Shown: positions 30,987 through 62,166, numbered from the stretch's first letter. The stretch: DNA of 64,000 nt from a virus (IMGVR_UViG_3300036861_001161:1499-65498); one strand, 5' to 3'. The notes: generated from the letters alone by a model not told the origin. Translations and numbers: made by a program.

Positions 30987-31778
30987 GTGAATATCCCACA
31001 AGAAAAAAGATGTCTCAAATGTCTCGAAACAAAATCCCTTGATGAATTTGGGAAAGATAAGTACCAGTCCGATAGACACGCAACGCGATGCCTTCTTTGT
31101 AAACGGCAGAAAAGTGCTGACTATAGGAAAAAGAATCCAGAGAAGGCAAGGGCAGCGAGCGCGGCATGGAAGACAGAAAATCCTGCAAAGGTTCTTGCGT
31201 ATGCTGATGCCCATAGAGAGCGTAAAAATACGCGACGCAGAGAAAGGTATCGTGAGAATCCTGAAAGAGAGCTGGCTGTAAACGCGACGTACTATTACAG
31301 TCATAAGGATGAATTGCGCCCAGTACGTGCGGCATGGGAAGCCTCGAACAAACCTCAGCGCAAAGCGAAAAGACTTGAAACCTTCCTGAAAGATCCAGAA
31401 GGCAACCTTGAGAAACGACACAAACGTGATGCGGACTGGCTTGTAAAACATCCGGGATATTCGACAGAAAAATGGGCACGGCGGCGGGCACGAATAGCCA
31501 ATTCGCCCGCCAATGACTTTACGGCGGCTCAATTCGAGGAAATCAAAGCCGCTCAAAAGCATCGCTGTTATCATTGTGGTAAACGTCGCAAGTTGACTCG
31601 TGATCACGTCGTTCCTGTTATCCAAAATGGTGCACATACCGTACAAAATATTGTAGCGCTCTGCCTCGAATGTAATAGCCGTAAGAAAGATGGGGATGTT
31701 CTTGGTCCAACACAGTTAAACCTTCTCACTGAAGCACCTCCCAAACCCTACAAACCTCGCACCAAGAAAGTTGCCTAA
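30987..31778 (+). CDS. Free-standing HNH endonuclease
   Basis: N-terminal CxxC...CxxC, and RCYHCG....LTRDHVVPV..NGAHTVQNIVALC..CNSRK. TATAAT promoter at 30882-30887. Confidence 0.9.
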   Translation: MNIPQEKRCLKCLETKSLDEFGKDKYQSDRHATRCLLCKRQKSADYRKKNPEKARAASAAWKTENPAKVLAYADAHRERKNTRRRERYRENPERELAVNATYYYSHKDELRPVRAAWEASNKPQRKAKRLETFLKDPEGNLEKRHKRDADWLVKHPGYSTEKWARRRARIANSPANDFTAAQFEEIKAAQKHRCYHCGKRRKLTRDHVVPVIQNGAHTVQNIVALCLECNSRKKDGDVLGPTQLNLLTEAPPKPYKPRTKKVA

Positions 31779-32883: not shown

Positions 32884-33564
32884 CTATGCTGCTGCTGACA
32901 AGATCGGCGCATCCACCATCTCAATCATCGTGGCCGCTGTCAGAATCCCGGCCACTGGTCCGGCGACATGATGCCCGGTCACCCATCCGGAGAACCACCA
33001 CGCGCTCTTGAGCGTATCGGGAAACACGAGCAAGTACGAGCGCCGCGTTTTGGTGAGCAAGAGATACTCTAACCCTGTAGTCGGATTATGGGTCGCATGC
33101 CCAGGAACCAGGTTCAAGGAGAGCCGCACCGTATTCCCACTGAGCAGCGTCGGGACTCGACTGGTCCAGTTATTGCCGTCATGGGCACTCGTCTCGACAA
33201 GCGTGGCTTGTATACCGGCATCCTCTATATTGGTTACTTCGGCAATCGTCGCATACGTATCGTTGCGCACGACCGTACCGGGGGATGTATAGGCTCCGTT
33301 ACCTGCGGAGCCCCGAAGAAGGAGATGGGTCGCATCGACACGGGCGGCGATCCAGTAGGGATTCGCGAGGGTGTTATTTGCCGCGGTATTGCCGCCGACC
33401 CCCGCCACCGTAATCACGTCGACATCGGTGATCCCATGGGCCGTGGCTGTTTGAATGACAATCGGGGTGACATTCGTGGCGCCAGTGATGGCCACGGAGG
33501 CCAAGGCTACCCCATCTCCTAATCTCAGCTGGATGCCATAGGCCGCTATAGCCTGAGTCGTCAT
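32884..33564 (-). CDS. Major tail tube protein (paralogue 1, with inserted FCCH-like beta domain)
   Basis: MTTQAIAAYGIQL...[ITGATNVTPIVIQTATAHG insert]...IAEVTNI...ETSAHDGNNWTSRVPTLL...WWFSGWVT. Confidence 0.8.
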   Translation of the reverse strand: MTTQAIAAYGIQLRLGDGVALASVAITGATNVTPIVIQTATAHGITDVDVITVAGVGGNTAANNTLANPYWIAARVDATHLLLRGSAGNGAYTSPGTVVRNDTYATIAEVTNIEDAGIQATLVETSAHDGNNWTSRVPTLLSGNTVRLSLNLVPGHATHNPTTGLEYLLLTKTRRSYLLVFPDTLKSAWWFSGWVTGHHVAGPVAGILTAATMIEMVDAPILSAAA

Positions 33565-34769: not shown

Positions 34770-37700
34770 CTATCCTCCCACCGATGTGACCTGACGTTTT
34801 TGGGCGATGCCTGGCTGGCTACGAGCCGTACGCAAGCGGCCATGCAGATGCCGCCGAGGGATACCAATAAGACTGGCCGTCGCGCTCCAGGACCCGGTGC
34901 TGCCGAGGAGACTACTTGCGAGCAGCGTCACGGTACTGCCGCTCTGCCCCTGACTGGGACGCACTTCACTGATGAGTGCGACCGCCAGGGCCTGCTCTTG
35001 CAGCAAGCGCGCCAAGATTTCATGGGCAACCACCTGCGGAAGACTCCGGAGGGTGCCGCCGCGTTGGGCGAGAGCACTGACGACTTCTGCCGTCACGGCC
35101 TGAATCACGGCGGGATGGGACAACACCGAGTTTGCCAGACGCTGCGCACTGGCCTCCATATGGCCGGTGGCTTGCAAGCCCGGCAGCGTAAAATTCTGCC
35201 CCTGTATTTGGACGAGGCGGGCGAGGATTTGCGAAATGCGTAGCGTCGAGCTCGTGCCTTGCGCCTGGCCGGTGGCAGCATGGATCTGGCTCAGGAGACT
35301 ACTCGCCAGTGCTTGAATCAACGCAGGACGCGTGAGTATTTGATTCACGCTCCGTGACGCCAGACCCTGTATGCTGGCCGGCCGGGCAAGAAGACTGCTA
35401 CTGACATGGCTCGAAGCGCCATGCAGCATGGCCCCTGATGCCCGCAGGCTACTGGCGAGTTCCAGGGTAAACGCATGGATGACCTCAGGACGGGCGAGGA
35501 CGGAACTCGCCACGCGGGTCATCTGCCCGGCCAGATGCGCACTTCCCACTGCCCCGCCGGCCTGGCTCGGGACGCTACGTATCTGGCCGCTGCCTACCCG
35601 TAGGGAACTCGTCAATGCTCCGGCCACAGCATGAACCACAGGTGTGCGGGCCAGGACTTCACTCGCGAGGCGCGTCATCTGCGCATGGAAGATCCCGCTT
35701 CCCGTGCGCACGCTACTGGCAACGCGAGTGCTCGTCCCCTGGAGGAGGCCCAATCCGGTGCGAAGCGAACTGGCGACTCGGCTTGCCAGTGCCTGAACCT
35801 GCACAGCCCGGAAGGCTACGGCATGACCAATCCGCGCACTGCTGGCCTGCTCATGAGCTGCCGCAGCCCGGAGGCTACTAGCGATGCGTACCGCAACCCC
35901 GGAGGCATGGACCGTTACGGAGACGACACCAGGCGTGAGACCAACTCCTACTCCATGAAGCATCCCACTGGCGGTACGCAGGGAGGAGGCCACGCGGATG
36001 GCATTGACCTGGATCATGCCTGTTGCCGCACGAATTTCACTGGCCATCCGCGTGGCCTGGGCATGTGCCGTCCCACTGCCAGCCCGGAGACTGCTCGCCA
36101 GCCGCGCCGTTTGTGCCGTGATCGTCGCCACGCGTCCGGTGATGGCACTACCGATATGGGCCGTCGTATCATACACAACCCCACTGCCAGCCCGGAGACT
36201 GCTGGCAATTCGGCTCGTGCTCGCCGTGACCTGCCCGGCAACCGCCAGCGTGCCGGCTGGTAACGGGGTTCCTGTGGCATGGACCATGGCCGTACCGGCG
36301 CGGAGCGAACTTGCGAGCCGCGTCGCGCTACTCTGTTCTTGTCCCGTACTGAGGCGGCTGGCACTCGCAACCCGCGTCATGGTATCGTGGATGGTGGCAC
36401 TCCCAGCACGGAGACTGCTCGCGAGCCGAACGCTACTCGCCTGCTCCTGGGCACTGCTCGCCCGAATCGCACTGCCCACACCGACGCTGCTGGCTTGGAG
36501 ATGCGCAGCACCTGCCCTCAACGACGAGGCGATCTTTCCAGCACTGGCGCCCATGAACCCTGTTTTTGCCAGAATAGCACTCGCAATCGGCCCGGCCTGG
36601 CCCTGCTGATGCCCACTCCCCGTGCGAAGATTCGTGGTGACACGAGGAGCGGCTGGCCCCGCCATGCTGCCACTCACCTCGACCGCAGCCGCGCCAGGAG
36701 ATGTAATGGCGATGCGATAGACGGGGAGAGCGGCACTCAACAGGACCGTCCCACTTTGCAGTTGGTCAAAGCGTACCGTGACATCCTTGTTGCCCGTGTC
36801 AATCGTCACGCTGGCCGGCTCGATCAGGGCTATGGCAGGACTGCCGGCATCCCAAATCTGCCACACGAGATCTGGGGTAAGGAGATTATGGAGTGTGCCA
36901 GCAATCGTAAACTGTGTTTCACCCGTAAAGGGATGCACATACACGGGCGTCCCGACACTCACGAGGATGGTCCCGCTCTGCGACTGATCAAAGGTGACAT
37001 CGACATTCTTACTGGCAGTCGTGACGGTAACACTTGCGGCCGCTAGCAAGGCGGCAGGCGTCGCCGCATCGCGCAGCTGGACAAACAGATTCGCCGTGCC
37101 CAGATTGTGGGTCGTGCCATTGACGGTGAATGATGGGGCCGCAAACCCCTGCGTATAGGGTGCAGGGGCTTGGCGCAGAAGGATGATGCCAGCGGGCGGG
37201 AAATAAAAGGCAATCGCGACATCAAAGCTCGTCGGATGAATCGTGATGGTCCCAGGTTCGACCGTGAGCGCGGTGCCTACCGTATCATAGGCCTGGACCA
37301 GAATATTCCCCGTCCCAAATTGATGCGTGGTGCCGGGCACGAGCACAGTCGTCGCAAGAGTCGTCGGTTGAATGGCCACCAGGCGCGCATGCGCACTGAG
37401 TCCAGCCGTCGAGGACCGCACCGCACTGGCTACCCGCTGCGAGGTGGCCTGGACCCTGCCGGTGCCTGTTTGTTGTGCCGCGCTTGTCGCCACTGGCAGG
37501 GTGATCGACACGGGCGTGGCCGCACTCAACACCACGACCCCGGCTTGCAGTTGCGTGAACGTGATCTTGACCTGAAAAGTAGTTGGATGAATCGTCACCG
37601 AGCCCGGCGTAAGCGCAGCACGTACCGGCGTCACGTCATCATAGACGTGCACGCGCAAGGCGGCCGTCGCCAGCCCATGGGTACTTCCGTCAAGGACGAC

Positions 37701-40328
37701 TTCCATGGTCGAGGTAAAGGCATGCACAAAAGCGGGAAGCCCGCGACTGAGAATGAGCGTCCCGCTCTGATTCTGCCGGAAGACGAGATCGACGGCGGCA
37801 TTATCCGTCCGGACTGTCAAGGATCCTGGCTCCACAACCTGAGCAGGCGTACCCGCATCGAGCAGTTGCCAGGCGAGATCGGCACTGCCTAAGCCATGCG
37901 TGCCCCCTGGGATATTCAGGCTGCCCTGGCCAGTAAACGGCAAGACATAGGGCGCCGGGATCAGATGAATGATTACCCGCGTATTTTCGCCCTGGGTTTC
38001 CCGCACAATGACATCAAATGTGGTGGGATGAATCGTGATGGATGCCGGCTCAAGGACTCGCAATGGGCTTGCGGTATCAGTAGCCTCCACAAAGAGGTTC
38101 CCACTCCCAACGCCATGCGTCGTGCCGGGCACCATGATGGTAACGGCGAGGCTCGTCGGAAATCCCGCAATGAGGGTGGCATGGCCGGCGAGCCGTCCAC
38201 TCCCGGCTCGCACACTACTGGCGAGCCGTGTCGTTTGGGCCTGCGCCTGCCCGATGCCGATTCGTAGACTGCTCGCGACTTGCGTACTACTGGCATGCTC
38301 GATGCCTGTACCAGCCTGCACGAGGTTGCCACTCGGTACGCCTGAGCCGGCAATATGTCCACTGCCGGACCGCAGACTACTCGCCACCCGGCTGCTCATC
38401 GCCTGCTCCTGGACGGTACTCGCACGGAGTTCACTCGCCACGCGTATCGTGGTGACCTGCACTTGGGCAGCCCCAGCGCGAAGCGAGCTACTCACGGCAC
38501 TCCGCGTAGCCTGTTCCTGGACAGTGCTGACGCGCACTTCACTCGCAAGGCGTACGGTACTGGCCTGCGCCTGCCCGCTGCCGGACCGCACACTACTCGC
38601 CACGCGGGCGGTTGTGGCCTGCGCGAGAGCCGTTGCAGCCCGGAGACTACTGGTAAGACGCGTCGTCGTGGCCTGCGCCTGGCCACTGCCGATGCGCTGC
38701 GAGCTAGCGACATGAGCCGCACTGGCCTGCGCTGTTCCACTGCCAGCTCGCAGACTACTGGCGAGGCGTATGCTACTCGCCTGCTCACTCACCGTAACGC
38801 TTTTGATACCAGCCGGAGTAAAGAGGGCACGCTGTTCCACGGTCGTCAGCAAGGTGACCTGGCCATCCTGCACCGTGAATGCGGCAGCATAGCGGGTCGG
38901 AGGGGCCGCGAGCACGATAGTGCCTGCCTGGGCTTGTCGAAACGTGATTTCGACATTAAAACTCGTCGGATCAATCGTCACCCGGCCAGGGCGCAGCGCG
39001 GCAGGCGTTCCTGCGGCATCATAGACTTGCCAGAAGAGATCAGCGGTTCCCAGGTTATGCGTGGTCCCAGGAATACTCCAGGTAGCAAAACTGCCAAAAG
39101 TTTCGGTATAGCGGGCGCTGGGGGCGGCGAGGATGACTGTCCCACTTTGGGACTGTGCAAAGGTGAGCGTCACGTTGAACGATCCGGGAGCGACGGTCAC
39201 CGAGCCTGGCTCAAGGCGTCTTGGAGGGCTCGCGGCATCCCAGACCTCCCAGAGTAACGCCGTCGTCCCGAGATTGTGCGTCGTCCCCGGAATACTCCAG
39301 ACGATATCGGAGAAGCTTCCGCTATACTGCGGCATGGCGCTGCTGAGCAGGATACGACCACTCTGTCCCTGGCGGAACGTGGCCGTGACATCGAAGCTCG
39401 TCGCATCCATGGTGACGCGCCCGGCCTCAATGGCTTCTCGTGGGGAAGCATTATCGACGAAGCGCACGAGGAGGTTGGCGGTCCCCTGGCGATGCGCCAC
39501 GCCGGGCACCCGCAGCGTCAAGCCTGTGGGCTGCAGCGCGGCCTGAAGTGCGGCCGTCGCCTGCTGTTGTCCGCTGCCAGCTCGGGTGGCATTGGCCGTG
39601 CCTATCCGTGAGGCCTGGGCGGCACCACTGCCAGCGCGTAAACTACTGGCGATACGAGCTGCCGTAGCCTGCGCTGATCCTGCTCCCGCCGTGGTCGCGA
39701 GGAAGATTAAGGTCTGCGAAAACTCCCACCAGGGATTGCGGGCGGTTGTCTCACCAGAATCCCCCGCGGTCAGATCGGTGGCATTGTCATTGCCGTAACT
39801 CAGCGTGACCGTACGGTCCACGGCCGTGGCCGAGCGAAACCCCCACTCGATGACGAGATAATCCCCGGCCGTCGCCGATTGGGTCGTGAGGGTAATCGCC
39901 GTCGCTTCTGCCACATCGGCGAATTGACGATTGGTTAGGGTATTCGTCACAAATTCATGGGGGGCACTGGTGGCGGCATCGCTCGCGGTTTGGGCCAACA
40001 GTACCGCACGATCCGCCCCGCCGGGTTGCACGATTTTGACGGCCATGGCCAGCGTCCCACTCGCCCCATTATTATTCTGCATGGCGCGCATCTGGCCGCT
40101 GATGCTGCCCGCAATCGATTGAGCAGCCAACGGACCAATGATGGTCCGCCCCATGGCCTGCGCAATAGTCGCGATGCCTGTGGCCTCGGTCTTCGAGGTC
40201 ATGGCCGAACCGTCATTTTTGGCGAGCGTGCCGGGCACCGTCACGGGATTAATCTGGTTGGCAAAATTCCAGGTCGAGGGCGTCACGCCGACCGCCCCAG
40301 AAACCTTCGTATAAATGCGGGTTGCCAT
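34770..40328 (-). CDS. 1852-aa repetitive fibre/whisker-like virion protein
   Basis: N-terminal globular domain, a backbone of ~19-aa R.ASSLRAGSG..QA repeats, and nine ~70-aa THNLG modules in three triplets. Confidence 0.75.
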   Translation of the reverse strand: MATRIYTKVSGAVGVTPSTWNFANQINPVTVPGTLAKNDGSAMTSKTEATGIATIAQAMGRTIIGPLAAQSIAGSISGQMRAMQNNNGASGTLAMAVKIVQPGGADRAVLLAQTASDAATSAPHEFVTNTLTNRQFADVAEATAITLTTQSATAGDYLVIEWGFRSATAVDRTVTLSYGNDNATDLTAGDSGETTARNPWWEFSQTLIFLATTAGAGSAQATAARIASSLRAGSGAAQASRIGTANATRAGSGQQQATAALQAALQPTGLTLRVPGVAHRQGTANLLVRFVDNASPREAIEAGRVTMDATSFDVTATFRQGQSGRILLSSAMPQYSGSFSDIVWSIPGTTHNLGTTALLWEVWDAASPPRRLEPGSVTVAPGSFNVTLTFAQSQSGTVILAAPSARYTETFGSFATWSIPGTTHNLGTADLFWQVYDAAGTPAALRPGRVTIDPTSFNVEITFRQAQAGTIVLAAPPTRYAAAFTVQDGQVTLLTTVEQRALFTPAGIKSVTVSEQASSIRLASSLRAGSGTAQASAAHVASSQRIGSGQAQATTTRLTSSLRAATALAQATTARVASSVRSGSGQAQASTVRLASEVRVSTVQEQATRSAVSSSLRAGAAQVQVTTIRVASELRASTVQEQAMSSRVASSLRSGSGHIAGSGVPSGNLVQAGTGIEHASSTQVASSLRIGIGQAQAQTTRLASSVRAGSGRLAGHATLIAGFPTSLAVTIMVPGTTHGVGSGNLFVEATDTASPLRVLEPASITIHPTTFDVIVRETQGENTRVIIHLIPAPYVLPFTGQGSLNIPGGTHGLGSADLAWQLLDAGTPAQVVEPGSLTVRTDNAAVDLVFRQNQSGTLILSRGLPAFVHAFTSTMEVVLDGSTHGLATAALRVHVYDDVTPVRAALTPGSVTIHPTTFQVKITFTQLQAGVVVLSAATPVSITLPVATSAAQQTGTGRVQATSQRVASAVRSSTAGLSAHARLVAIQPTTLATTVLVPGTTHQFGTGNILVQAYDTVGTALTVEPGTITIHPTSFDVAIAFYFPPAGIILLRQAPAPYTQGFAAPSFTVNGTTHNLGTANLFVQLRDAATPAALLAAASVTVTTASKNVDVTFDQSQSGTILVSVGTPVYVHPFTGETQFTIAGTLHNLLTPDLVWQIWDAGSPAIALIEPASVTIDTGNKDVTVRFDQLQSGTVLLSAALPVYRIAITSPGAAAVEVSGSMAGPAAPRVTTNLRTGSGHQQGQAGPIASAILAKTGFMGASAGKIASSLRAGAAHLQASSVGVGSAIRASSAQEQASSVRLASSLRAGSATIHDTMTRVASASRLSTGQEQSSATRLASSLRAGTAMVHATGTPLPAGTLAVAGQVTASTSRIASSLRAGSGVVYDTTAHIGSAITGRVATITAQTARLASSLRAGSGTAHAQATRMASEIRAATGMIQVNAIRVASSLRTASGMLHGVGVGLTPGVVSVTVHASGVAVRIASSLRAAAAHEQASSARIGHAVAFRAVQVQALASRVASSLRTGLGLLQGTSTRVASSVRTGSGIFHAQMTRLASEVLARTPVVHAVAGALTSSLRVGSGQIRSVPSQAGGAVGSAHLAGQMTRVASSVLARPEVIHAFTLELASSLRASGAMLHGASSHVSSSLLARPASIQGLASRSVNQILTRPALIQALASSLLSQIHAATGQAQGTSSTLRISQILARLVQIQGQNFTLPGLQATGHMEASAQRLANSVLSHPAVIQAVTAEVVSALAQRGGTLRSLPQVVAHEILARLLQEQALAVALISEVRPSQGQSGSTVTLLASSLLGSTGSWSATASLIGIPRRHLHGRLRTARSQPGIAQKRQVTSVGG

Positions 40329-52869: not shown

Positions 52870-53054
52870 GCATCCGCGGCGCGCCGGTTTCTGCGGATGA
52901 GTATCACCATCTCAAAGGCCACATCTTCAGCCATCGCCCACTGATCATAATAACTCGTCACATCAGGACGTATTGCCTGGACCGCGATGTGGATCTCAGC
53001 TACAAACTCCTCAGCGAGCTGCCTGTTTTTCTCATCGGTCATCATGTACGCCAC
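52860..53054 (-). CDS. Hypothetical protein
   Basis: ORF overlapping the head-closure stop codon. Confidence 0.45.
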   Translation of the reverse strand: MAYMMTDEKNRQLAEEFVAEIHIAVQAIRPDVTSYYDQWAMAEDVAFEMVILIRRNRRAADAWS

Positions 53055-53368
53055 TAGAGCGATACCTCATGATGCGACACGTTGCCATCGAGATCCTTCG
53101 GGCTATAGAGCACCAGGATAGGCGGTCTGGTCCCATCGGACAATACAAGCTGATCACGCATATCTATCGTCACGTCCCCATCCAGAAACACCCGGCTACG
53201 GCTCACGCGCTCCTGTCCCGTCGCATCCACGACACGCCGGACCTTATACTCCACACGCGCGGAACGACTCACCGGTGTCGCATAGTTCGGCTTGCCGTAG
53301 GCGTCCTGCCCGGCATAAGCCGCATGCTGGACGGTATCCGTGAACAGGCGCAAGAAAGCTGGATGCAT
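53054..53368 (-). CDS. Head closure (head-tail stopper) protein
   Basis: G.DAYGKP.Y....S..ARVE...R.V.D..G.E.VS....F.....D..D...L.DG. Confidence 0.8.
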   Translation of the reverse strand: MHPAFLRLFTDTVQHAAYAGQDAYGKPNYATPVSRSARVEYKVRRVVDATGQERVSRSRVFLDGDVTIDMRDQLVLSDGTRPPILVLYSPKDLDGNVSHHEVSL

Positions 53369-53380
53369 TGGGTGTCCTTG

Positions 53381-53974
53381 TCAACAGCGGCGCAACGGCA
53401 CCATCGCACTTCCCGCAATCGTCCCATACCATCGCAGCATATGGCGGATGTCCGGGGGGATCATCTGCGCGGCCCTCCAGGACGAGGGACGTGGGGCCTG
53501 CTGAAAGGCGATCGTCGTGTCCCCAAGACTGAGCGAGCGAATGTTCTGCTGGCCATCGAGCGCCTGGACGGACTCGCTCTGATCACGCAACAGGGCGAGC
53601 GCATAGAAGGCCGTGGCCCGCTGAATCACGATCGGAATGGTCTCCTGCGAGACGATACGCCCATATTGGTCCACCTGCCCCGTCATCGGCCAGGCTAAGG
53701 CTTGCGTGCGGGTCAAGGGATGGCCAAACCAGTTGACCTGTTCATCAAGCAGCCGTGTCGCCCAGATGAGAGCAGCCGTCCGGAGTTGCAGATCCTGTTC
53801 CCCATACCAGGCCGCCAGATCGCCCCGCAGCGCGGCCGTCGCACGGCGTGAAGTATCCTCGGGAAAGTTCCATGGTTCCCGATGGAGGCGTTCCGAGAGC
53901 AAGGTATCCGCCTCGATGAGGGTCACGTAACTATTCGCCGTCGGACTAGCGGGGGTCGCATCAAGCACCAGCAC
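53381..53974 (-). CDS. Head-tail connector (DnaT-like family)
   Basis: ANSYVT..EAD...AALI.AT..LD....W.G......QALAWP...IP..I..A....AL. Confidence 0.8.
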   Translation of the reverse strand: MLVLDATPASPTANSYVTLIEADTLLSERLHREPWNFPEDTSRRATAALRGDLAAWYGEQDLQLRTAALIWATRLLDEQVNWFGHPLTRTQALAWPMTGQVDQYGRIVSQETIPIVIQRATAFYALALLRDQSESVQALDGQQNIRSLSLGDTTIAFQQAPRPSSWRAAQMIPPDIRHMLRWYGTIAGSAMVPLRRC

Positions 53975-53982
53975 ACTCCCTC

Positions 53983-54234
53983 TTACGCTGGAATCACGTG
54001 AATACCGACACTGTTGAAGATTCCCACGTCCGTCGCCAAGGTCAGCACGTAATCACCCACCACGTCCGCCACAAATGAGGGCGTGGCCGTCAAGGCATCG
54101 GCCAGCATGCCTGTATATCCGGCAGGGATCACCGTCATAGCCCAACAATACGCATTGGCGCTGGACGCAGAGCCATCCAGGGCCACGGTCGTGCCGGCCG
54201 TCACTTCTTGGGAGAGCCCAGGCAGGGCCGCCAT
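53983..54234 (-). CDS. Stand-alone PKD/Ig-like domain protein
   Basis: AG.TV.LDGSAS....Y.W.....PAG....L......PSFVAD..GDY.L.L. Confidence 0.65.
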   Translation of the reverse strand: MAALPGLSQEVTAGTTVALDGSASSANAYCWAMTVIPAGYTGMLADALTATPSFVADVVGDYVLTLATDVGIFNSVGIHVIPA

Positions 54235-54494
54235 TATTTCTTCTCCGCAGCCGCATGGCTCGCCCGCGCTTCTGCCCGCGTCTCGATATGCGACGCCGCC
54301 GGCTCCGGGGATGCGGCTGGGGCCTTCAGGATGGGCTCCACATAGGGCGGGTAAACACTTGGGTCATACGCCAACCCCTGCGCATATTCCCACGCCGTGG
54401 CACCGGCCCGGTAATCGCGGGCATTGATGATCATGTAGCCTTCCGGGGTATCCGGACGGGAGACCTTTAGGGTTTCCAGCTGGTCATAGGCCAT
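54234..54494 (-). CDS. Small head-associated protein
   Basis: LET.KV.....PEGY.IINA.DY motif, commonly found downstream of capsid genes. AAGGAG RBS. Confidence 0.55.
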   Translation of the reverse strand: MAYDQLETLKVSRPDTPEGYMIINARDYRAGATAWEYAQGLAYDPSVYPPYVEPILKAPAASPEPAASHIETRAEARASHAAAEKK

Positions 54495-54523
54495 AGAACG
54501 TTCCTCCTTGCAGGACAGAAAGA

Positions 54524-55069
54524 TTAGGTAGAGGTCTGCTGTGCTGAACTTTGCCGCCAGACAACGCCATCGCTCATGACCCCAAGACAACTATTCGCCA
54601 GGAGCGCGACGTTCGCCCCGGCTTGCAACATCATCAGGGCATTTTGGTCTATAGTTATGGTATTCGTTGTTCCCACATTACAGACCAACATCATACATCC
54701 CGGCACAGTCGTAGCCGCTGTAATACTATTTGTCGTATCAGTAGTGACCGCACCAGCCGCCGTAATGCGTTTGACGCCCCCACAGGCATCTGCCGCAATC
54801 GTCCCGCCCGCGCCAATGGTCTGCGTGGCGGGCATGATCACCCAGGCCCCGGCGGTCGCAGTGGTCCTGACCGAGGTCACGTCACTGCCACCGACCTGCA
54901 CGACGCCGGTACTGGGGGTGCTCATACCGGAGAGCTTGGTTTCGCCCAGGACTAATCCGGTAACGAACTGAAAGATATCAGTGCGGCGATAATACTCCTG
55001 GGCGACCAGGTAGCTACTGGTGAGCAGGACTGCCAGCAGGGCGAGGGAGAGAATGGTTTTTCGCGGCAT
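54524..55069 (-). CDS. Head decoration/fibre-like protein with signal peptide
   Basis: MPRKTILSLALLAVLLTSSYLVA-Q, and a C-terminal beta domain (NVGT.NTITI...L......DG.VW.Q). First structural gene after the capsid. Confidence 0.6.
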   Translation of the reverse strand: MPRKTILSLALLAVLLTSSYLVAQEYYRRTDIFQFVTGLVLGETKLSGMSTPSTGVVQVGGSDVTSVRTTATAGAWVIMPATQTIGAGGTIAADACGGVKRITAAGAVTTDTTNSITAATTVPGCMMLVCNVGTTNTITIDQNALMMLQAGANVALLANSCLGVMSDGVVWRQSSAQQTST

Positions 55070-55118
55070 AGATGTCCTTTCTGCGCTCTTAAGAGAGTCC
55101 ATAGCCGTGCAGACAACG

Positions 55119-55156
55119 AAAAAAGGGACGTCAGGCAGGTGCACCTGAACGTCCCT
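55119..55156 (-). terminator. Intrinsic terminator nested within a longer stem (55099-55111 pairs with 55196-55208)
   Basis: AGGGACGTTCAGG...CCTGACGTCCCT stem followed by a T tract. Outer inverted repeat ATAGCCGTGCA/TGCACGGCTAT. Confidence 0.7.
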
Positions 55157-55225
55157 AAAGACGATGTGCATGATCACGCTAGCTAGGCGAGACTATGCAC
55201 GGCTATAGAGTTGTATCGACTGAAC

Positions 55226-56323
55226 TCATTCCTCCGTATCGATATAAGTGGCACGGCCCGTCTTCAACCGATACTTGACTTGCATACGCGTATAGCCACT
55301 ATCGCGGGCGGCATCCATAATCGAGGGATAGACAACGCCATCCAGAAGAATAGCGCGGGCGTTAGGGTTTTTCTTTCCAGAGTGGGCTGCTACCATCTTT
55401 GCACGAGCTTCTGGCGTATGCTTTCTTCCCGCATTCAATCCCCCCAGCCCTTGATGCGATTCGCTGAGTTTGGCACGATGCTCTTCAGAGAGTGGCCCTT
55501 GTTTCAGACCTTTATTCCAGGCTTTTCGGCCTTTTGCTGCTTCGGCAATCTTACGCCTCGTTTCCTCAGAATGGGTGCGTCCCTGCATTGCATTCCCATG
55601 CTCAGCCTGGTGCGCCCGTACTGCGGCGGCAATCTGCGTCTTTGTATCCTCTGTATGCTCCCGGCCAATCCAGGGATGTTGACCTTCTGCGTATCGTTTC
55701 ACAGCTTGGTCTCTGAGTTTTTGCTTGTGATCTTCTGTTTTTGGTTTGCCTCGCACCGAGGCCATCATGGCTTCGTGATGGGCCTCAGAAATTATCTGAC
55801 CCTGCCGTGCGTCTGACAATTTCTGCCTATGCTCCTCAGACAGCAATTTGCCATACATATGGTTCTTGTCGCCTAGCTGAGCCTCACTCATTTTCTGCCG
55901 CTGCTCAAGAGACTTCGGAATGCCACGGTGGCGATTGCCAACAGCTTCACGAGTGGCAAGAGAAATTGGGATGCCTAGCTTCGCAAGAGAGATACGCTGC
56001 TTCGCCTCCTCAGACATAACACGCCCGAGTGCTCCCTCACCACCGAGCGTGAGGTTATACCCATGCCCAGTTGGGGCAAACGTGTTGTACTCCTGGATCG
56101 CAGCGCATTCCATAACTACTAAGGCTTCCCAATCGGTAGCTTCAGCGAGCATTTCCACCGTAAATGCCTCTATACCATATTTGCGGATAGCCCGCGCAAG
56201 CGCCTGAGCACCGCCAGTTTTCGCGTTGGAATAGTGTCGTTGCCACCGATGGCGCAAAGGTTGAGTAGTAATACCGACATAACCCTTTAGATTGACCGTA
56301 TTACGAACTAGATAGAGATACAC
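55226..56323 (-). CDS. Free-standing GIY-YIG homing endonuclease with NUMOD3 repeats
   Basis: YLY.VRN.VN.K.YVGIT...L..RW..H...AIRKYG...F...E...I...NT....GYNLT.GGEG, and many HSEETRRKI-type repeats. Confidence 0.95.
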   Translation of the reverse strand: MYLYLVRNTVNLKGYVGITTQPLRHRWQRHYSNAKTGGAQALARAIRKYGIEAFTVEMLAEATDWEALVVMECAAIQEYNTFAPTGHGYNLTLGGEGALGRVMSEEAKQRISLAKLGIPISLATREAVGNRHRGIPKSLEQRQKMSEAQLGDKNHMYGKLLSEEHRQKLSDARQGQIISEAHHEAMMASVRGKPKTEDHKQKLRDQAVKRYAEGQHPWIGREHTEDTKTQIAAAVRAHQAEHGNAMQGRTHSEETRRKIAEAAKGRKAWNKGLKQGPLSEEHRAKLSESHQGLGGLNAGRKHTPEARAKMVAAHSGKKNPNARAILLDGVVYPSIMDAARDSGYTRMQVKYRLKTGRATYIDTEE

Positions 56324-56389
56324 TTTGAACCTCCTGTTGAGAGATATCGTAGAGGTTCAAAGTGTATCATGTTTTAGCCTGTATATCAA
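56317..56389 (-). promoter_or_regulatory. Sigma70 promoter embedded in a 17-bp hairpin covering the RBS and GTG start
   Basis: TTGATA(56389-56384)-17bp-TACACT(56366-56361). Perfect inverted repeat GATACACTTTGAACCTC at 56317-56333 and 56352-56368. Confidence 0.8.
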
Positions 56390-56397
56390 TAGCTAGC

Positions 56398-58367
56398 TCA
56401 CCCAGCTAGGATCACTGCTAATTCGGGACGTACTAATTGCCGATGGTGTTATCGCCATGGCTCTTTATCCATAGCTTCTGTATGTCGCCATACAGTCCAG
56501 ACTATCTCTTCATCTCACAACTGAGATGCCGGGCGCTCGTGTCGGCTGCATCACTGGTCGAGTGGTATGCCGTTAGTCGTTGCACCTTCTCCGTATCCCT
56601 ACGAAGCTTGGCTCAGGGTTGTCTGCATGAGAGGTTCCCTGAATTCACCCGGTTGGCACTCATAGCTTACGCTATGAGGGGGCAATAGTTCTCTTCCACC
56701 CCGTACAAAACGTCATAGGAGAACCTGGTCCTCTTGTGCTCTCGACTAATTTCAAGGCGTAAGTTCACGCCAGTCAGCGGATCCCCGATGGCCTGCACCA
56801 ACGAATCCGCCAGTTGCAGGTCTGCGAGGGGGCGCGAGGCGAAGGCGGCGGCATCGCGGTGGAAGATCAGGTTGCGCACATAGCCCGCGCCACCGACGGG
56901 GCCTTTGAAGGTGACCACGGCAGTCGTGGCAAAGCCGCCCGTTGGCGCCGCTGGCGCAAACGTGACGCCGGTAATAGCGTTGGCTGCGGCCGTCAACGTC
57001 GTGGCATTGGTGACCACGAAGGTGCCGCTCACGCCGGCCACGCTGAAAATCTCGCCGGTCAGAATCGTCCCGGTCAGTGAGGTCTCATTGATATTCATGG
57101 TGGTCGCACCCGCAGCCACGGTGCCGTTGACCTTCGCGGCATGGATGGAGCCGTTCGTCAAGGTTCCGGTAGGGCGAACGACGATGTTCTGATCCATGAA
57201 CCAGTCTGCGCCCATCTTGGTGCCTATCTGTCCGAGAATGATGCCTTGCGTATTGCCCGCCCAGGACGTGTCTTGAAACGCCCGGAGATTGAGCGCCGCG
57301 CCTTCGGCATCGGGGTCCAGCACGACGCGCCGGTCGCCCATAGGCGCCAGCTGGCGGTTGAGGACGGCGCGACCGGACGTGTAGACGGCGGTATCAGGCA
57401 CAATATTGGGGGAGACCGGGGTGCTGAAGGGCGTGGTGCCCGCCGTGCCGACAAAGCCGTAGACGCCGTTAAAAGCGGCAATCGTATCGGTATCCATCAC
57501 CTGGCAGACCGCCTTGATAGCCTCCGAAGCCTGCATGGGCATCGTGCCTTCCATGGCGTCCATCATGTCTTTATCAGTCAAATAGAACGGGGCTTCTTTC
57601 CACCGGTTTAAAACCACCACGACAGACGTCGGGGCAATGTCGGCGGTCGAGGGCGGGGTGGCCGCAGGAGTCACGTCCTGGACCGCGATAGCGCTAGGGA
57701 TGGGTATGTTTATTGAGTCCCCGCGCTGTGCGGCCATCGTGTCATAGCCACGGTTGACTCATCGATGTTATCGTGAGGGCTCTTTATCCCTCACTTCTGC
57801 ATGTCACCATGCAGAGCAGACTATCTCATCATCCCAGAAGGATGCCGCGCGCTCGTGGGGTTTTACTGCCATGGCTGTCTAGCGGTAGGCTCCATACCCT
57901 AGTCGTTGAACCTTCCGTGGGTTTCCCCAGCGGCTTGGCTGCTGATTGTCTCAAAGAGAGGTCCCAGCAATTCACGCGGTATACATCTCTAAATTACTTT
58001 AGAGAGGGCCAGTCAATCTAGCCTTGGCATTACGGTATTTGCTCTTAGTGCCATTAGCCCCTGCACACTGTTACCGTAGAAGCTTTTTATCTTCTACTTC
58101 TTTCCATCACTGGAAAGATCAGGCCATCTCTTCATCTCGATTGCCTGAGATGTCGGGCGCTCGTGTCGGCTGCATCACTGGTCTAGTGGTATGCCGTTGG
58201 CCGTTGCACCTTCACCCTATCCCTAGGGTGCTTGGCTCAGGATTGTCTTGTGGTATACCACAAGAGGTTCCCTGAATTCACCCGATGTACATCTGTGACT
58301 CGCGCCACAGAGAGCCCAGAAATTAAGCAAGGAGCTTAGGAAGAACCGCAGTAAGAATATTGGCCAC
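56398..58367 (-). CDS. Major capsid protein (P22 coat-like), 4 exons: 58367-58326, 58063-58020, 57759-56698, 56440-56398 (396 aa spliced)
   Basis: Joining the exons gives one open frame: MANILTAVLPKLLA|QGLMALRANTVMPRL|VNRGYD...GDSINIPIP...SYDVLYGV|QLVRPELAVILAG*. AAGGAGG RBS before GTG 58367. Confidence 0.9.
56441..56697 (-). ncRNA. Group I intron 3 in major capsid gene (257 nt, no ORF)
   Basis: 5' exon ends in U and the intron ends in G. P1 GGGGU/GCCCC, P4 AAUUCAGGGAA/AACCCUGAGC, P7 GACUA/UAGUC, J8/7 GAAGAGA. Confidence 0.9.
57760..58019 (-). ncRNA. Group I intron 2 in major capsid gene (260 nt, no ORF)
   Basis: P1 GGCU|AG/CUGGCC with U-G wobble, P10 UUGACU/AGUCAA, P4 AAUUGCUGG/AAUCAGCAGC, P7 GACUA/UAGUC, terminal G. 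Confidence 0.92.
58064..58325 (-). ncRNA. Group I intron 1 in major capsid gene (262 nt, no ORF)
   Basis: P1 GCU/GGC wobble, P10 CUG/CAG, P4 AAUUCAGGGAA/AAUCCUGAGC. P7 GGCCA/UGGCC shows compensatory changes relative to introns 2 and 3. Terminal G. Confidence 0.92.
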
Positions 58368-58402
58368 TGAATGGGCCTCCTTGTTCGCTTGATGAACATG
58401 AA

Positions 58403-58528
58403 GCCCCTCGGGGGCCAACATCGAACCGCTCGGCGGAAGGATGTTTGAAAAATCCGATGAAGATGCGAAGCATTCTCTCGGAGACATGCTTCTTTTTAGA
58501 GCGTACATCAAATAAAACAGTAATGCAA
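58403..58528 (-). promoter_or_regulatory. Capsid gene promoter and 5' leader with three CCGAG-loop hairpins
   Basis: TTGCAT-17bp-TACGCT (58528-58500). Hairpins UCU-CCGAG-AGA, CCG-CCGAG-CGG and GCCC-CCGAG-GGGC. Confidence 0.7.
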
Positions 58529-58624
58529 CTCGTAGTGCAATATGATATAATTACGAGGTAATGACAAATGGACGTTTGCCATTACCTCTGACCATACCAC
58601 GGACCTAAGAGGGAGGCCCGCTGC

Positions 58625-59530
58625 ATGACTGACGCCAGTATTACACCGCCGCCACTTATTTGCAATGCCTGTCCCGATGAAAAAACCCTAGAAGATTTCT
58701 ATTACAGTAAAACTGGCAAACGTCTACAGCCGTGCAAGCGTTGCATTGCGATGAGATATGCCGCCAATGGAGAAATCAACCGCGCAAGAAAGCGTCGTGC
58801 CTATGCCGCTGATCCTGCAAAGCATCAAGCTCAGGGGCGGGCGAGTCATGCCGCACATCGTGAAGAACGACAAGCTAAACAAAAAGTCTATCGTGATACT
58901 CACAAGGAAAAACGTACAATCAAGAAACATGAGTATTACGAAGAAAACCGCGAGGATATTCTTACAAAAGACCGCGCGTATAACGCAGAACACAAAGAGG
59001 AAAGGGCAGCAAAGAATCCTGAGTGGAATCTGAAAAATAAAGAGAAGGTCGCCATCGATAACCACAATCGGTACATGGCGAAACAGGAAGAACGTCAAGC
59101 AGCACAGCGCGCCTACAATGCTGCAAACCCTGACAAGAAGCGTGCAAGTGATCGATTAAATCGAAAGAACCACCCAGATATCCAGCTGACATTGCAAGCA
59201 CGAAAGCGAGCCAGGAAGCGTAATGCGCCTATCAATGACTTAAGTCATGGACAGTGGTTAGAAATTCAGGTCCATTTCTTCTATGCCTGCGTCTATTGTC
59301 CATGGGACTATGAAAAATGTTTTCACAAAACCCATTCGCTAACACAAGACCATATCATTGCCTTAATAAATGGCGGTAACCATACAGTTCCTAACGTTAT
59401 CCCAGCATGCCGGCATTGTAACAGTAAGAAACATACTGGCCCACCCACACGTTACGTCCAGCCACTCTTCTTTACAAGCGCTCCCCCAAAACTCTACAAA
59501 CCCCGCACCAAGAAAGTAGGTTCGCTATGA
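58625..59530 (+). CDS. Free-standing HNH endonuclease (paralogue of 30987-31778)
   Basis: C.YC...LTQDHIIAL..GG.HTV.NV.PAC..CNS.K. C-terminus APPKLYKPRTKKV is near-identical to the other HNH. Confidence 0.9.
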   Translation: MTDASITPPPLICNACPDEKTLEDFYYSKTGKRLQPCKRCIAMRYAANGEINRARKRRAYAADPAKHQAQGRASHAAHREERQAKQKVYRDTHKEKRTIKKHEYYEENREDILTKDRAYNAEHKEERAAKNPEWNLKNKEKVAIDNHNRYMAKQEERQAAQRAYNAANPDKKRASDRLNRKNHPDIQLTLQARKRARKRNAPINDLSHGQWLEIQVHFFYACVYCPWDYEKCFHKTHSLTQDHIIALINGGNHTVPNVIPACRHCNSKKHTGPPTRYVQPLFFTSAPPKLYKPRTKKVGSL

Positions 59531-59561
59531 ATACCGCCTATCCCCTGTGTTCGCGGCCTCC

Positions 59562-59768
59562 CTATGGAGACAATGGCGCTTCTCAGCCAATAATCTCCTT
59601 ACAGCCATGACAGATAATCGCACAATACGGGCGTTTTCATAAGCATCTCAAGAAGCGCTGGGGCCGTTGGACTTGGCCTCGCAGAAACTCAGGAAAGCAT
59701 GTACCGCAGCGGGGACAGACTTCATAGGCATAAGGCTATCCCCGTAAGCGAGAGACCTCGTCCGGCAT
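59562..59768 (-). pseudogene. Zn-ribbon small protein gene with three in-frame stops
   Basis: MPDEVSRLRG*PYAYEVCPRCGTCFPEFLRGQVQRPQRFLRCL*KRPYCAIICHGCKEIIG*EAPLSP*. Confidence 0.5.
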
Positions 59769-59782
59769 ACGGCTAACCTAGA

Positions 59783-59944
59783 CTATTTCTTTTTGGGTTT
59801 TATGCCAGGAACATGGCCCTCTGATATATTTATTGCCTGGACCTGTTTGACCGCTGCCTCTTTGGTCGCATGCGATCCATACTCCTTCCCCTTATCATCA
59901 ACCACGACAAACTTCTTCCCTTTCTTGGCACTATGCACCGGCAT
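59783..59944 (-). CDS. 53-aa basic head-region protein
   Basis: MPVHSAKKGKKFVVVDDKGKEYGSHATKEAAVKQVQAINISEG... with GAAAGGG RBS. Below the ORF-track size cutoff. Confidence 0.65.
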   Translation of the reverse strand: MPVHSAKKGKKFVVVDDKGKEYGSHATKEAAVKQVQAINISEGHVPGIKPKKK

Positions 59945-59964
59945 TGGTGTCCCTTTCTTCGGGC

Positions 59965-60726
59965 TTATGCACTCATATCGACTTCGACTTCCCCACGGGC
60001 GATCTTCTCCAAATTCTGAAGAAATGCCTTGGAATCACTAGCCGCCACCACATTGCGCCCATTCCGGCTCTGTCCCCCCAGTCCGTTATTGGCCCCACCC
60101 CCGCTACTGCTCTTGAAATAATGCGGATACGTCTTGCTCAGACCGCCGAGCCATTCTTCCATGCTCAGAAACCTGGATGGTTCGCGGTCACTATAGATGG
60201 GGTCTTCGCCTTGAAATGGGACGACCTTGCCTTCAGTAACACGAAACACGCGCGAGGCGCGCGTCTGCAAATCCTCCAGGGCGGTCTCATGAATTCCCAC
60301 CTTAGGCGCAGCCATGGCCACTTCATTGGAGATAAGGGCATGGTGGAACTTCATCTCATTGGCTTTGGCCACGGCATCGCGCTCAGCAAACATCCCTTCG
60401 TATTTTTTGGCGAGGCGTGCCTCGACCTCGGTAATTTGCTTCTGGATATCCGTCGGCGCGGCCTTGAGCGATTTGTATTCGTCAGGGTCAATATCCTTGT
60501 ATTTCCCCTGAAACTCGGCATGCTCGGTTTGCAGGGCTTCGTAATCTTTTTGCAGCTTCTCTTTGTCACGATTCAACGCTCTATTATTCGTTCTAAATTC
60601 ATTCAGCATATCCTTCGTGACATAGCCTTCCACATCCAGTATCCATTTCCCGTCTTTTTCGACCAGATGCTCCCGCAACGGTTCAGGCGCATCGTCTTGT
60701 GAATCGTACATTCCTTTGAGTGCCAC
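59965..60726 (-). CDS. Capsid scaffolding protein
   Basis: MALK....S.D..PE.LRE..VEKDGKW.LDVEG...EFR.NN..L, coiled coil, and PHYFKSSSGGGA. Located upstream of the capsid gene. Confidence 0.85.
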   Translation of the reverse strand: MALKGMYDSQDDAPEPLREHLVEKDGKWILDVEGYVTKDMLNEFRTNNRALNRDKEKLQKDYEALQTEHAEFQGKYKDIDPDEYKSLKAAPTDIQKQITEVEARLAKKYEGMFAERDAVAKANEMKFHHALISNEVAMAAPKVGIHETALEDLQTRASRVFRVTEGKVVPFQGEDPIYSDREPSRFLSMEEWLGGLSKTYPHYFKSSSGGGANNGLGGQSRNGRNVVAASDSKAFLQNLEKIARGEVEVDMSA

Positions 60727-60728
60727 AA

Positions 60729-60962
60729 CTATTTCTCCTGTCCTTCCTCGGGACCTTCATGGGCAGTCGTTGCCCAATTCCATGCGGTACGCGCCTGTGT
60801 GGCGCCCGGGCGCCAGGGTCCACGCAATCCACAGGCCGTACAGGTGACCCAAAACCCTGACGTTGAACTATACACGCTTACAAGACCCTCGCCCATCTGC
60901 ACATGTACGGCTGTGTGGCAGAATAGACAGGGAGCCAATGCCGTCTCCCCTTCTTCACTCAT
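60729..60962 (-). CDS. Lar-family (restriction alleviation-like) Zn-ribbon protein
   Basis: LAPCLFC...FWVTCTACGLRGP......A..AWN. Confidence 0.7.
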   Translation of the reverse strand: MSEEGETALAPCLFCHTAVHVQMGEGLVSVYSSTSGFWVTCTACGLRGPWRPGATQARTAWNWATTAHEGPEEGQEK

Positions 60963-61323
60963 AGAAACTCCTTCGTGGAGACTGCCTGCTTCAGGCGGCA
61001 GAGGAAAGTGAGGACGACAAACATGCGGTGCCTCGCCTATGATTCTTTCAAGCAGAAAAGAATAGGAACGATCTGGGGACTATCGGAAGGCAGGTGGCAC
61101 GATGCCAGCGGCATCATGCGATACCCTGACGGACAGACAGAGGTGTTCATCATCCACAGGACCGTGCGCGCCGGCACCCCGTCACGCACCGGAGACCCCT
61201 GCGTCGACATATGCACAGAGAACTGCCACCAGACAAGAAGGATGGCTACCAGAAGAACGATCAGGAGCCAGCGCATAGGTGAGGACCTTGTACTTGGGAG
61301 TTGTGAAAGCGTCCTGGTTAAGG

Positions 61324-61584
61324 TCATGGCACAGATGACACGAATCCACCATGGTCCACGCTTCTTTCCTGCATCACGTCTTGCACTCCCTCCAGTGTGC
61401 GACTCCAGCCTACCGGTTTGAGCCAGAGAAAGACCTGGGCGCCCTCGGCGTTATGGCCGGCAATTTCAAATACGTCATAGCCGGCAAAAACCTTCTCTCC
61501 GCGTCCAAAGTACGATGGCTTCCGGTCAAACCTGGTCCGGCTCGGCATCACGGCATACTTGATGTCATCAGACATTCCGACCAT
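61324..61584 (-). CDS. Hypothetical protein
   Basis: AAAGGAG RBS and a packed operon position. Confidence 0.5.
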   Translation of the reverse strand: MVGMSDDIKYAVMPSRTRFDRKPSYFGRGEKVFAGYDVFEIAGHNAEGAQVFLWLKPVGWSRTLEGVQDVMQERSVDHGGFVSSVP

Positions 61585-61644
61585 TAATTGGCTCCTTTCG
61601 CAGGCACCTCTTTCCCGTTCTCCTTGGGCAGATCGGCCACCGCC

Positions 61645-62166
61645 TCATCCCGCTTCTCCCTGGGCCGCGCGTAACCGCCGTATCTCTTCGATCAACAGAG
61701 GCACGGCCGTATGACACAGCATATAGAAATTGGCATTGGCATGACTCTCGCGGGCATTGCCGGTGATCGCGGTCAACACCGCGCCATGCGCTTCAATCTC
61801 CTCAGATGTCCCAAGAGACACGCCATACACGCGGTCCCCAAGAGTCTTCAGTAAGGCTTCCTGAAACCATGCGACCGGATCATCCTCGTCCGGAATGTGG
61901 ACGACATGGACCGGCGGCTGACTCGCCTGCTGCGCATACCAGGCCATCCGCTCCAGGACGTGCTCAGGTAATACCTCGGTTGTCGCGAGAGATGCAGGAT
62001 CATCGGGCATGGACTCCTCCGCCCTGAGGGCAAGGCCGTGCATCTCGAGCACAAAAGTGCCACCCTCCTCATGTAGCTGAGCGCCGTAGCCGGCAGCCTC
62101 GAGCTTGCCCCAGATTTCGACAAAGGCATCAACACTGATATCCAGAAGCGCATATGTGTCTGTCAC
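61645..62166 (-). CDS. Hypothetical protein with Ead/Ea22-like C-terminus
   Basis: TYA.L.IS..A..EI..KL.AAGY...MHGLAL N-terminal part, and ANANF.....AVP.LIEEIRRLR C-terminal part. Confidence 0.6.
   Translation of the reverse strand: MTDTYALLDISVDAFVEIWGKLEAAGYGAQLHEEGGTFVLEMHGLALRAEESMPDDPASLATTEVLPEHVLERMAWYAQQASQPPVHVVHIPDEDDPVAWFQEALLKTLGDRVYGVSLGTSEEIEAHGAVLTAITGNARESHANANFYMLCHTAVPLLIEEIRRLRAAQGEAG

Follow-up and report, generated by a model that had tools for sequence, protein, structure and literature searches.

Three ORF-less group I introns and two flanking homing endonuclease genes at the major capsid gene of a soil phage

In Staphylococcus phage Twort a single late gene, orf142, reportedly holds three group I introns, an arrangement said to have been described by Landthaler and Shub in 1999. 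Among the crAss-like phages, introns in the major capsid protein (MCP) gene are given as typical of the Delta group and a Zeta-group MCP as lying in five fragments in the account of Yutin et al. (2021; PMC7886860). Capsid-gene introns are likewise reported for Tuc2009 and LittleE by Pope et al. (2013; PMC3706429), who document splicing in vivo for LittleE by RT-PCR and N-terminal sequencing, and Jug phages are described as carrying 18.5 group I introns in an average genome, 37 of 76 being backed by metatranscriptome data (PMC12363816). As to intron mobility, collaborative homing is set out for the psbA intron of cyanophage S-PM2 with F-CphI and for a T3/T7-like DNA polymerase intron with a free-standing homing endonuclease gene, or HEG (PMC3984707, PMC10448857), and HEG islands bracketing essential phage genes are described by Barth et al. 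(2023; PMC10448857).

Here we consider a locus in an IMG/VR virus record of 65,498 bases (IMGVR_UViG_3300036861_001161), from which a stretch of 64,000 nt was analysed; this whole stretch is the window, and positions refer to it unless stated otherwise. At 56398-58367 on the minus strand it holds what is very probably a P22-type, HK97-fold capsid gene of a soil phage, split by three ORF-less group I introns in such a way that splicing restores a 396-aa coat protein. The sequence-only reading that drew attention to the gene was right about its exons and introns but missed two free-standing homing endonuclease genes that flank it.

Exons, introns and the spliced coat protein

In the ORF list for the minus strand the capsid appears as a single ORF of 356 aa (56667-57737 (−)), which is also what the gene caller gives for the locus (P0001); the sequence-only reading had remarked that the ORF track offers just this truncated capsid, and no other ORF is listed for it. 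Joining four exons (58367-58326, 58063-58020, 57759-56698 and 56440-56398) gives 1191 nt, that is, 396 codons plus a TGA stop. Exon 1 (42 nt, 58326-58367 (−)) encodes residues 1-14 from a GTG start, 8 nt upstream of which a ribosome-binding site, AAGGAGG, can be read from the sequence (58376-58382 (−)). Exon 2 (44 nt, 58020-58063 (−)) encodes residues 15-28 and 2 nt of codon 29, exon 3 (1062 nt, 56698-57759 (−)) the body of the major capsid protein, and exon 4 (43 nt, 56398-56440 (−)) the final nucleotide of codon 383, residues 384-396 and the TGA; the three short exons are defined by the joined reading frame together with the homologue alignment. The N-terminal 29 and C-terminal 14 residues of the coat protein are thus present only after splicing. 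Automatic annotation delivers the truncated 356-aa capsid, with 43 residues lost including the N-terminal arm, and capsid calls are used in turn for taxonomy and structure prediction; the locus shows, in a form that is clean and easy to check, how capsid calls in viral metagenomes are corrupted by ORF-less introns.

A database search with the translation of exon 3 gives 1238 homologues at E ≤ 0.001, and the translation matches the PHROG major head protein family phrog_283 (E 1e-53). Searched alone against Pfam, exon 3 returned no family at E ≤ 0.01, so that the P22-coat assignment rests on the homologues and on PHROG: PF11651 (P22_CoatProtein) is present in 33 of 35 full-length homologues, and its match in P0004, which is 84% identical, has 63.7 bits (cut-off 24) and takes in profile positions 15-419 of 423. 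There are also matches to two solved major capsid proteins at E about 3e-8.

Aligned with 39 homologous proteins (P0002-P0040), the spliced product is gap-free at every junction. The exon 1 segment is covered by 34 of these (mean identity 69%, maximum 93%), that of exon 2 by 35 (identity up to 100%) and that of exon 4 by 37 (up to 93%). Among the 120 best database matches, 107 reach from spliced residue 5 or earlier to residue 390 or later, and two homologues, P0004 and P0006, are 396 aa long, as is the spliced product. This colinearity with uninterrupted homologues bears out the proposal that removal of 58325-58064, 58019-57760 and 56697-56441 restores a 396-aa P22-type coat protein. P0002, at 95% identity, was called as one continuous gene over junctions 1 and 2 and hence represents an intron-less allele of those two sites in a close relative, and junction 3 is read through by P0003-P0010. 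Within the family, conservation of the capsid protein at the junctions falls in the 97th, 83rd and 54th percentile for junctions 1, 2 and 3, respectively, and the N-terminal block belongs to the best conserved stretches. Viral and metagenome scans did not give the DNA of the nearest homologues (P0002-P0009), the best locus found there being 54% identical (58% over a fragment).

Among the 119 non-self homologues, eight (P0003, P0005, P0008, P0052, P0070, P0038, P0042 and P0063) begin just past junction 1, each with a Met, at spliced residue 26, 18 or 16; such starts are what a gene caller would be expected to produce if site 1 carried an insertion in other lineages as well. Within the prokaryote genome collection, the capsid sequence nearest to this one lies at the contig end of a Gemmatimonadaceae MAG (L090, 2501-2812; 71% identical over residues 3-106), and two further loci, L056 and L096, also come from Gemmatimonadaceae MAGs, a weak hint at this family as the host group.

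The introns were searched for with cmscan and the Rfam group I intron model RF00028, whose gathering cut-off is 50 bits. Three full-length matches (model 1-253) were returned on the minus strand, at 58100-58335 (75.3 bits), 57797-58029 (84.0 bits) and 56478-56706 (88.9 bits), with E-values from 2e-21 to 3e-17, in agreement with the three group I introns of the sequence-only reading, for which an Infernal search had been suggested as a check. These are the only RF00028 matches in the whole 65,498-base record, and a permissive Rfam scan of 53000-62000 added nothing except a chance-level LOOT match (E 0.69). Intron 1 (262 nt, 58064-58325 (−)) starts with an in-frame UAA as its first codon, intron 2 (260 nt, 57760-58019 (−)) has an in-frame UGA at codon 3 and intron 3 (257 nt, 56441-56697 (−)) an in-frame UAA at codon 11 (56667-56669). 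Each intron has stops in all three frames, and none holds an ORF.

Boundaries were examined by shifting them through all positions within ±6 nt and keeping those shifts that leave the protein unchanged, which leaves two choices for intron 1, three for intron 2 and two for intron 3. A T (U in the RNA) precedes each intron and a G is the last base of each, as had been noticed before; combining a U at −1 with a terminal G leaves just one boundary pair per intron, the one originally proposed, so that this rule fixes each intron uniquely.

By reading from the sequence, P1 comprises 5 bp in intron 1, 6 bp in intron 2 and 7 bp in intron 3, each including a U.G pair, and these wobble pairs agree with the cmscan alignments. 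P10 spans 6 bp in intron 1 (3 Watson-Crick and 3 G-U) and 6 bp in intron 2 (all Watson-Crick), in line with the clear P10 pairings first reported for these two introns; no convincing P10 was found in the sequence of intron 3. A structure comprising P2, P3, P4, P5, P6, a P7.x hairpin, P8, P9, P9.1 and the P7 pseudoknot was drawn on the three-intron alignment. With 11 helices, 69 pairs and 207 cells from three related sequences, all of one gene, 97.1% of the cells are paired as compared with 33-45% in slid controls, both sides have changed in 33 of the 69 pairs, and 0 of 500 shuffles match the observed pairing and covariation values; RNAalifold finds compensatory changes in 31 of 72 pairs. Every helix is preserved by compensatory changes. 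P7 is fully paired (100%) and includes 2 compensatory pairs, and the covariation GACUA/UAGUC versus GGCCA/UGGCC that had been pointed out is real in the alignment. Group I introns of subgroup IA are recognised by extra helices, P7.1 and P7.2, between P7 and P3′ (PMC3984707). All three introns have an insertion of 36-46 nt between P7 and P3′, with one predicted hairpin (87.5% of cells paired).

Overall, introns 1 and 3 are 68% identical, introns 2 and 3 also 68%, and introns 1 and 2 60%. Introns 1 and 3 are near-identical only over J6/7-P7-P7.x-P3′ (51 of 55 columns, 93%); elsewhere they share 83% in P6, 53% in P9 and 36% in P1-P2, while the P9-P9.1 region is 74% identical between introns 2 and 3. 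The similarity is thus a mosaic, with a centre common to introns 1 and 3 and a P9 region common to introns 2 and 3. The nearly identical core that the sequence-only reading ascribed to introns 1 and 3 holds for the centre but not for the introns as a whole, and the intragenic transposition read into it is not specifically indicated: the mosaic speaks for one intron family, and recombination or gene conversion would fit at least as well.

Beyond the gene, the intron cores match 116 phage records over short stretches, each covering at most 9% of the query, and an exact 28-nt pattern from the core has 0 matches in viral contigs. Rfam at gathering score returned 0 matches in 17 capsid-homologue loci and in the EBPR siphovirus 1 locus. 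An nhmmer search with a three-intron profile over all 96 loci (530 kb) gave matches confined to the window's own loci, to L045 (Sporosarcina phage Lietuvens) and to L020 (EBPR siphovirus 1), with a related intron at 0 of the 83 capsid-homologue loci of other records, so that the comparative support for the insertion sites comes from protein calls, not from DNA. Searching with a 62-aa ORF that ends at exon 1, for relatives sharing intron 1, gave no candidate.

The two outside matches are worth recording in their own right. The tape measure gene of Lietuvens (MT104122.1) appears to be split by a group I intron that is absent from the annotation and related to intron 2 (L045, 2407-2644; RF00028 48.1 bits against the cut-off of 50): ORF18, annotated as a minor tail protein, corresponds to positions 200-305 of phrog_1533, and the annotated tape measure ORF20 continues with 306-710. 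EBPR siphovirus 1 (JF412302.1) shows a match resembling a group I intron at 40.5 bits, below the cut-off, that runs from the end of the annotated head protein gp47 into the start of the HNH endonuclease gp48 (L020, 2973-3199). A head gene may thus be interrupted there by an intron that carries an endonuclease and is missing from the annotation; gp49, the ORF that follows, has weak RNA polymerase PHROG matches only.

From these data we infer self-splicing in vivo along the usual group I lines. In the late transcript each intron would most likely fold into a P3-P9 catalytic core, a guanosine would attack after the U of the P1 U.G pair, the terminal G would mark the 3′ splice site, and ligation of the exons would yield the 396-aa coat protein. 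Early in-frame stops have been tied to ribosome stalling that lets an intron fold (PMC3984707), and the stops at intron codons 1, 3 and 11 may similarly release ribosomes before these unfold the ribozyme core. The introns themselves, with 51-53% GC against 62% in exon 3, would then be selfish insertions in a region rich in homing endonucleases rather than a dedicated regulator.

Flanking endonuclease genes and intron mobility

The capsid gene belongs to an operon of late structural genes, on the minus strand, that comprises portal, head morphogenesis, scaffold, capsid and head-tail adaptor genes; a promoter and terminator scan gave consensus matches only. Starting 74 nt 3′ of the capsid stop is a free-standing GIY-YIG homing endonuclease gene of 365 aa (55226-56323 (−)), with Pfam GIY-YIG, NUMOD3 and I-TevI DNA-binding domains and a match to the homing endonuclease family phrog_314 (E 2e-52). 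On the other side, antisense between the capsid gene and that of the head scaffolding protein (59965-60726 (−); phrog_206, E 3e-25), lies a free-standing HNH endonuclease gene of 301 aa (58625-59530 (+)) with Pfam HNH and HNH_5 and matches to PHROG HNH families. The record has one GIY-YIG match, that of the 365-aa gene, and two HNH matches, one of them the 301-aa gene, so two of its three endonuclease-domain matches flank the capsid gene. The second HNH domain is at about 31566-31691 (33064-33189 (+) of G000:C1), within an open frame of 266 aa, and a very long ORF of 1852 aa (34770-40328 (−)) is seen upstream in the structural region. Relatives of the GIY-YIG protein in viral contigs are at most 39% identical, and none of the HNH protein was found there.

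With GIY-YIG and HNH genes on its two sides, the capsid gene (56398-58367) has the layout of a HEG island, and its ORF-less introns together with an adjoining free-standing endonuclease gene have that of collaborative homing. A tentative reading, compatible with the splicing account, is that the GIY-YIG enzyme, the HNH enzyme or both cut intron-less alleles, repair of which would copy the introns and the endonuclease genes. During co-infection, the intron-less capsid alleles of relatives would be cut at or near the insertion sites, and the introns would shield the phage's own capsid gene from cleavage. The concept itself is on record, as PMC3984707 and PMC10448857 describe it. Base composition is consistent with such an origin: exon 3 has 60-65% GC, the GIY-YIG gene about 52% and the HNH region about 45%. 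So is the relative L004, 54% identical, in which the scaffold gene and an uninterrupted capsid gene of 397 aa are adjacent and no endonuclease-size ORF was seen between the two or just 3′ of the capsid gene, as judged by ORF size. This uninterrupted locus, along with the lack of introns at the capsid-homologue loci, indicates that five selfish insertions were gained in the capsid region of this lineage.

The conserved protein positions of junctions 1 and 2 also suit insertion sites of mobile introns, though junction 3 is in the 54th percentile only, and cleavage at any of the sites by either enzyme is a prediction. Since the exon junctions have no common sequence, one enzyme cannot target all three. 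Two proteins from the same source, P0122 (a GIY-YIG protein, 75% identical) and P0005 (a capsid protein, 82% identical), each have a longest contig of 2802 nt, which suggests that the adjacency of endonuclease and capsid is conserved in a relative, the link between them being this shared figure alone. P0005 starts at residue 26, reads across junction 2 and has an uninterrupted C-terminus; if it is indeed linked to P0122, the GIY-YIG gene persists there without introns 2 and 3, which speaks against this reading.

Slightly more doubtful again is an extension in which the three introns and the two endonucleases, of different families, form a self-propagating island whose parts mobilise each other in mixed infections, with introns multiplying inside the gene and swapping core segments by gene conversion, for which the mosaic similarity is suggestive. 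If true, this would amount to a competitive weapon against the rivals' most essential structural gene. The mosaic introns, the micro-exons of 42-44 nt and the two endonucleases make the locus a compact test bed for collaborative homing and for the spread of introns within a gene.

Regulation, decay and assembly error

The sequence-only reading had raised the idea that splicing could gate capsid production, with GTP level, folding or translation setting splicing efficiency and so timing or limiting coat protein synthesis. Exons joined in silico do make the full-length coat protein dependent on all three splicing events, and skipping of exon 2, with its 44 nt, would shift the frame. The idea nevertheless finds no support at this locus, where there is no sign of regulation: introns 1 and 2 are absent from the 95%-identical relative and all three from most of the family, which makes them dispensable, and splicing of the LittleE capsid transcript is presumed to be extremely efficient in the account of PMC3706429. 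We regard such a gate as unlikely.

Still less probable is that the introns are dead relics, so that a truncated 356-aa coat protein with a read-through tail would be made from the ATG at 57737, or that the gene is a pseudogene. The 356-aa ORF is, admittedly, the only long one and the gene caller's own output. A start at this internal ATG, which had been named as an outcome that would overturn the intron account, is contradicted by a profile built from 35 uninterrupted homologues, which is matched from profile position 1 to 383 by the spliced product (606.7 bits) but only from 37 to 371 by the unspliced ORF (517 bits). The latter's read-through tail has no counterpart in any homologue of the alignment; the micro-exons are in frame and match intron-less relatives at up to 93-100% identity, the block that would be forfeited at the N-terminus ranks among the best conserved of the family, and the helices of the introns are all kept by compensatory changes.

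No RNA run with the stretch was found, and the contigs of two DNA runs, one of which (X2) leaves introns 1 and 2 uncovered, gave neither exon joints nor an intron-less form. That an assembly artefact or chimera placed intron-like DNA into the capsid gene is hardly credible even for a metagenome assembly estimated to be 66% complete, since three insertions that each restore the frame exactly are unlike misassembly, a contig of 68,940 nt at depth 31.9 (which may come from the source sample itself) covers the stretch without differences, and a second soil run, of another study, yields small contigs that are identical to it, among them one of 151 nt over 56336-56486, across the boundary of intron 3 and exon 4.

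Relation to described phage introns

Like Twort orf142, the present capsid gene is a late gene broken up by three small group I introns that lack ORFs and are separated by short exons. It differs in that the interrupted gene encodes the major capsid protein, that the phage is a high-GC soil phage, that two endonuclease genes flank the gene and that the introns are known here from DNA alone.

With the crAss-like MCP genes, as presented in PMC7886860, it shares a major capsid gene interrupted several times. The introns described there belong to gut Bacteroidota phages and were recognised through endonuclease-type domains that they encode, whereas those considered here are ORF-less, with the endonucleases outside the gene, and the coat family is P22-type, unlike the crAss-like MCP. 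LittleE offers another comparison, in the description of PMC3706429: both cases concern an intron in the major capsid gene of a phage of a high-GC host, preceded by U and ending in G. The same source offers a further likeness in related intron copies residing in different structural genes (a tail gene in BAKA) and in free-standing HNH genes nearby; LittleE, however, has one intron that holds an endonuclease ORF, in contrast to three ORF-less introns within one gene here.

LittleE, Tuc2009, the crAss-like phages and the Jug phages together make the arrangement one of an already documented kind, and the precedents in PMC7886860, PMC3706429 and PMC12363816, as far as these describe them, do not bear out the rarity that had been claimed beyond orf142. 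General knowledge of group I introns is unchanged by the locus.

As to mobility, collaborative homing in PMC3984707 and PMC10448857 is defined by cleavage at the insertion site, whereas the present case shows the gene layout alone, in which three introns are combined with a pair of endonucleases from different families. As in the HEG islands described by Barth et al. (2023; PMC10448857), an essential gene has homing endonuclease genes on both sides, but unlike in those islands the bracketed gene itself also holds three introns. What is particular to this locus is the combination of three ORF-less paralogous introns, two micro-exons of 14 codons and, outside the gene, endonucleases from two families.
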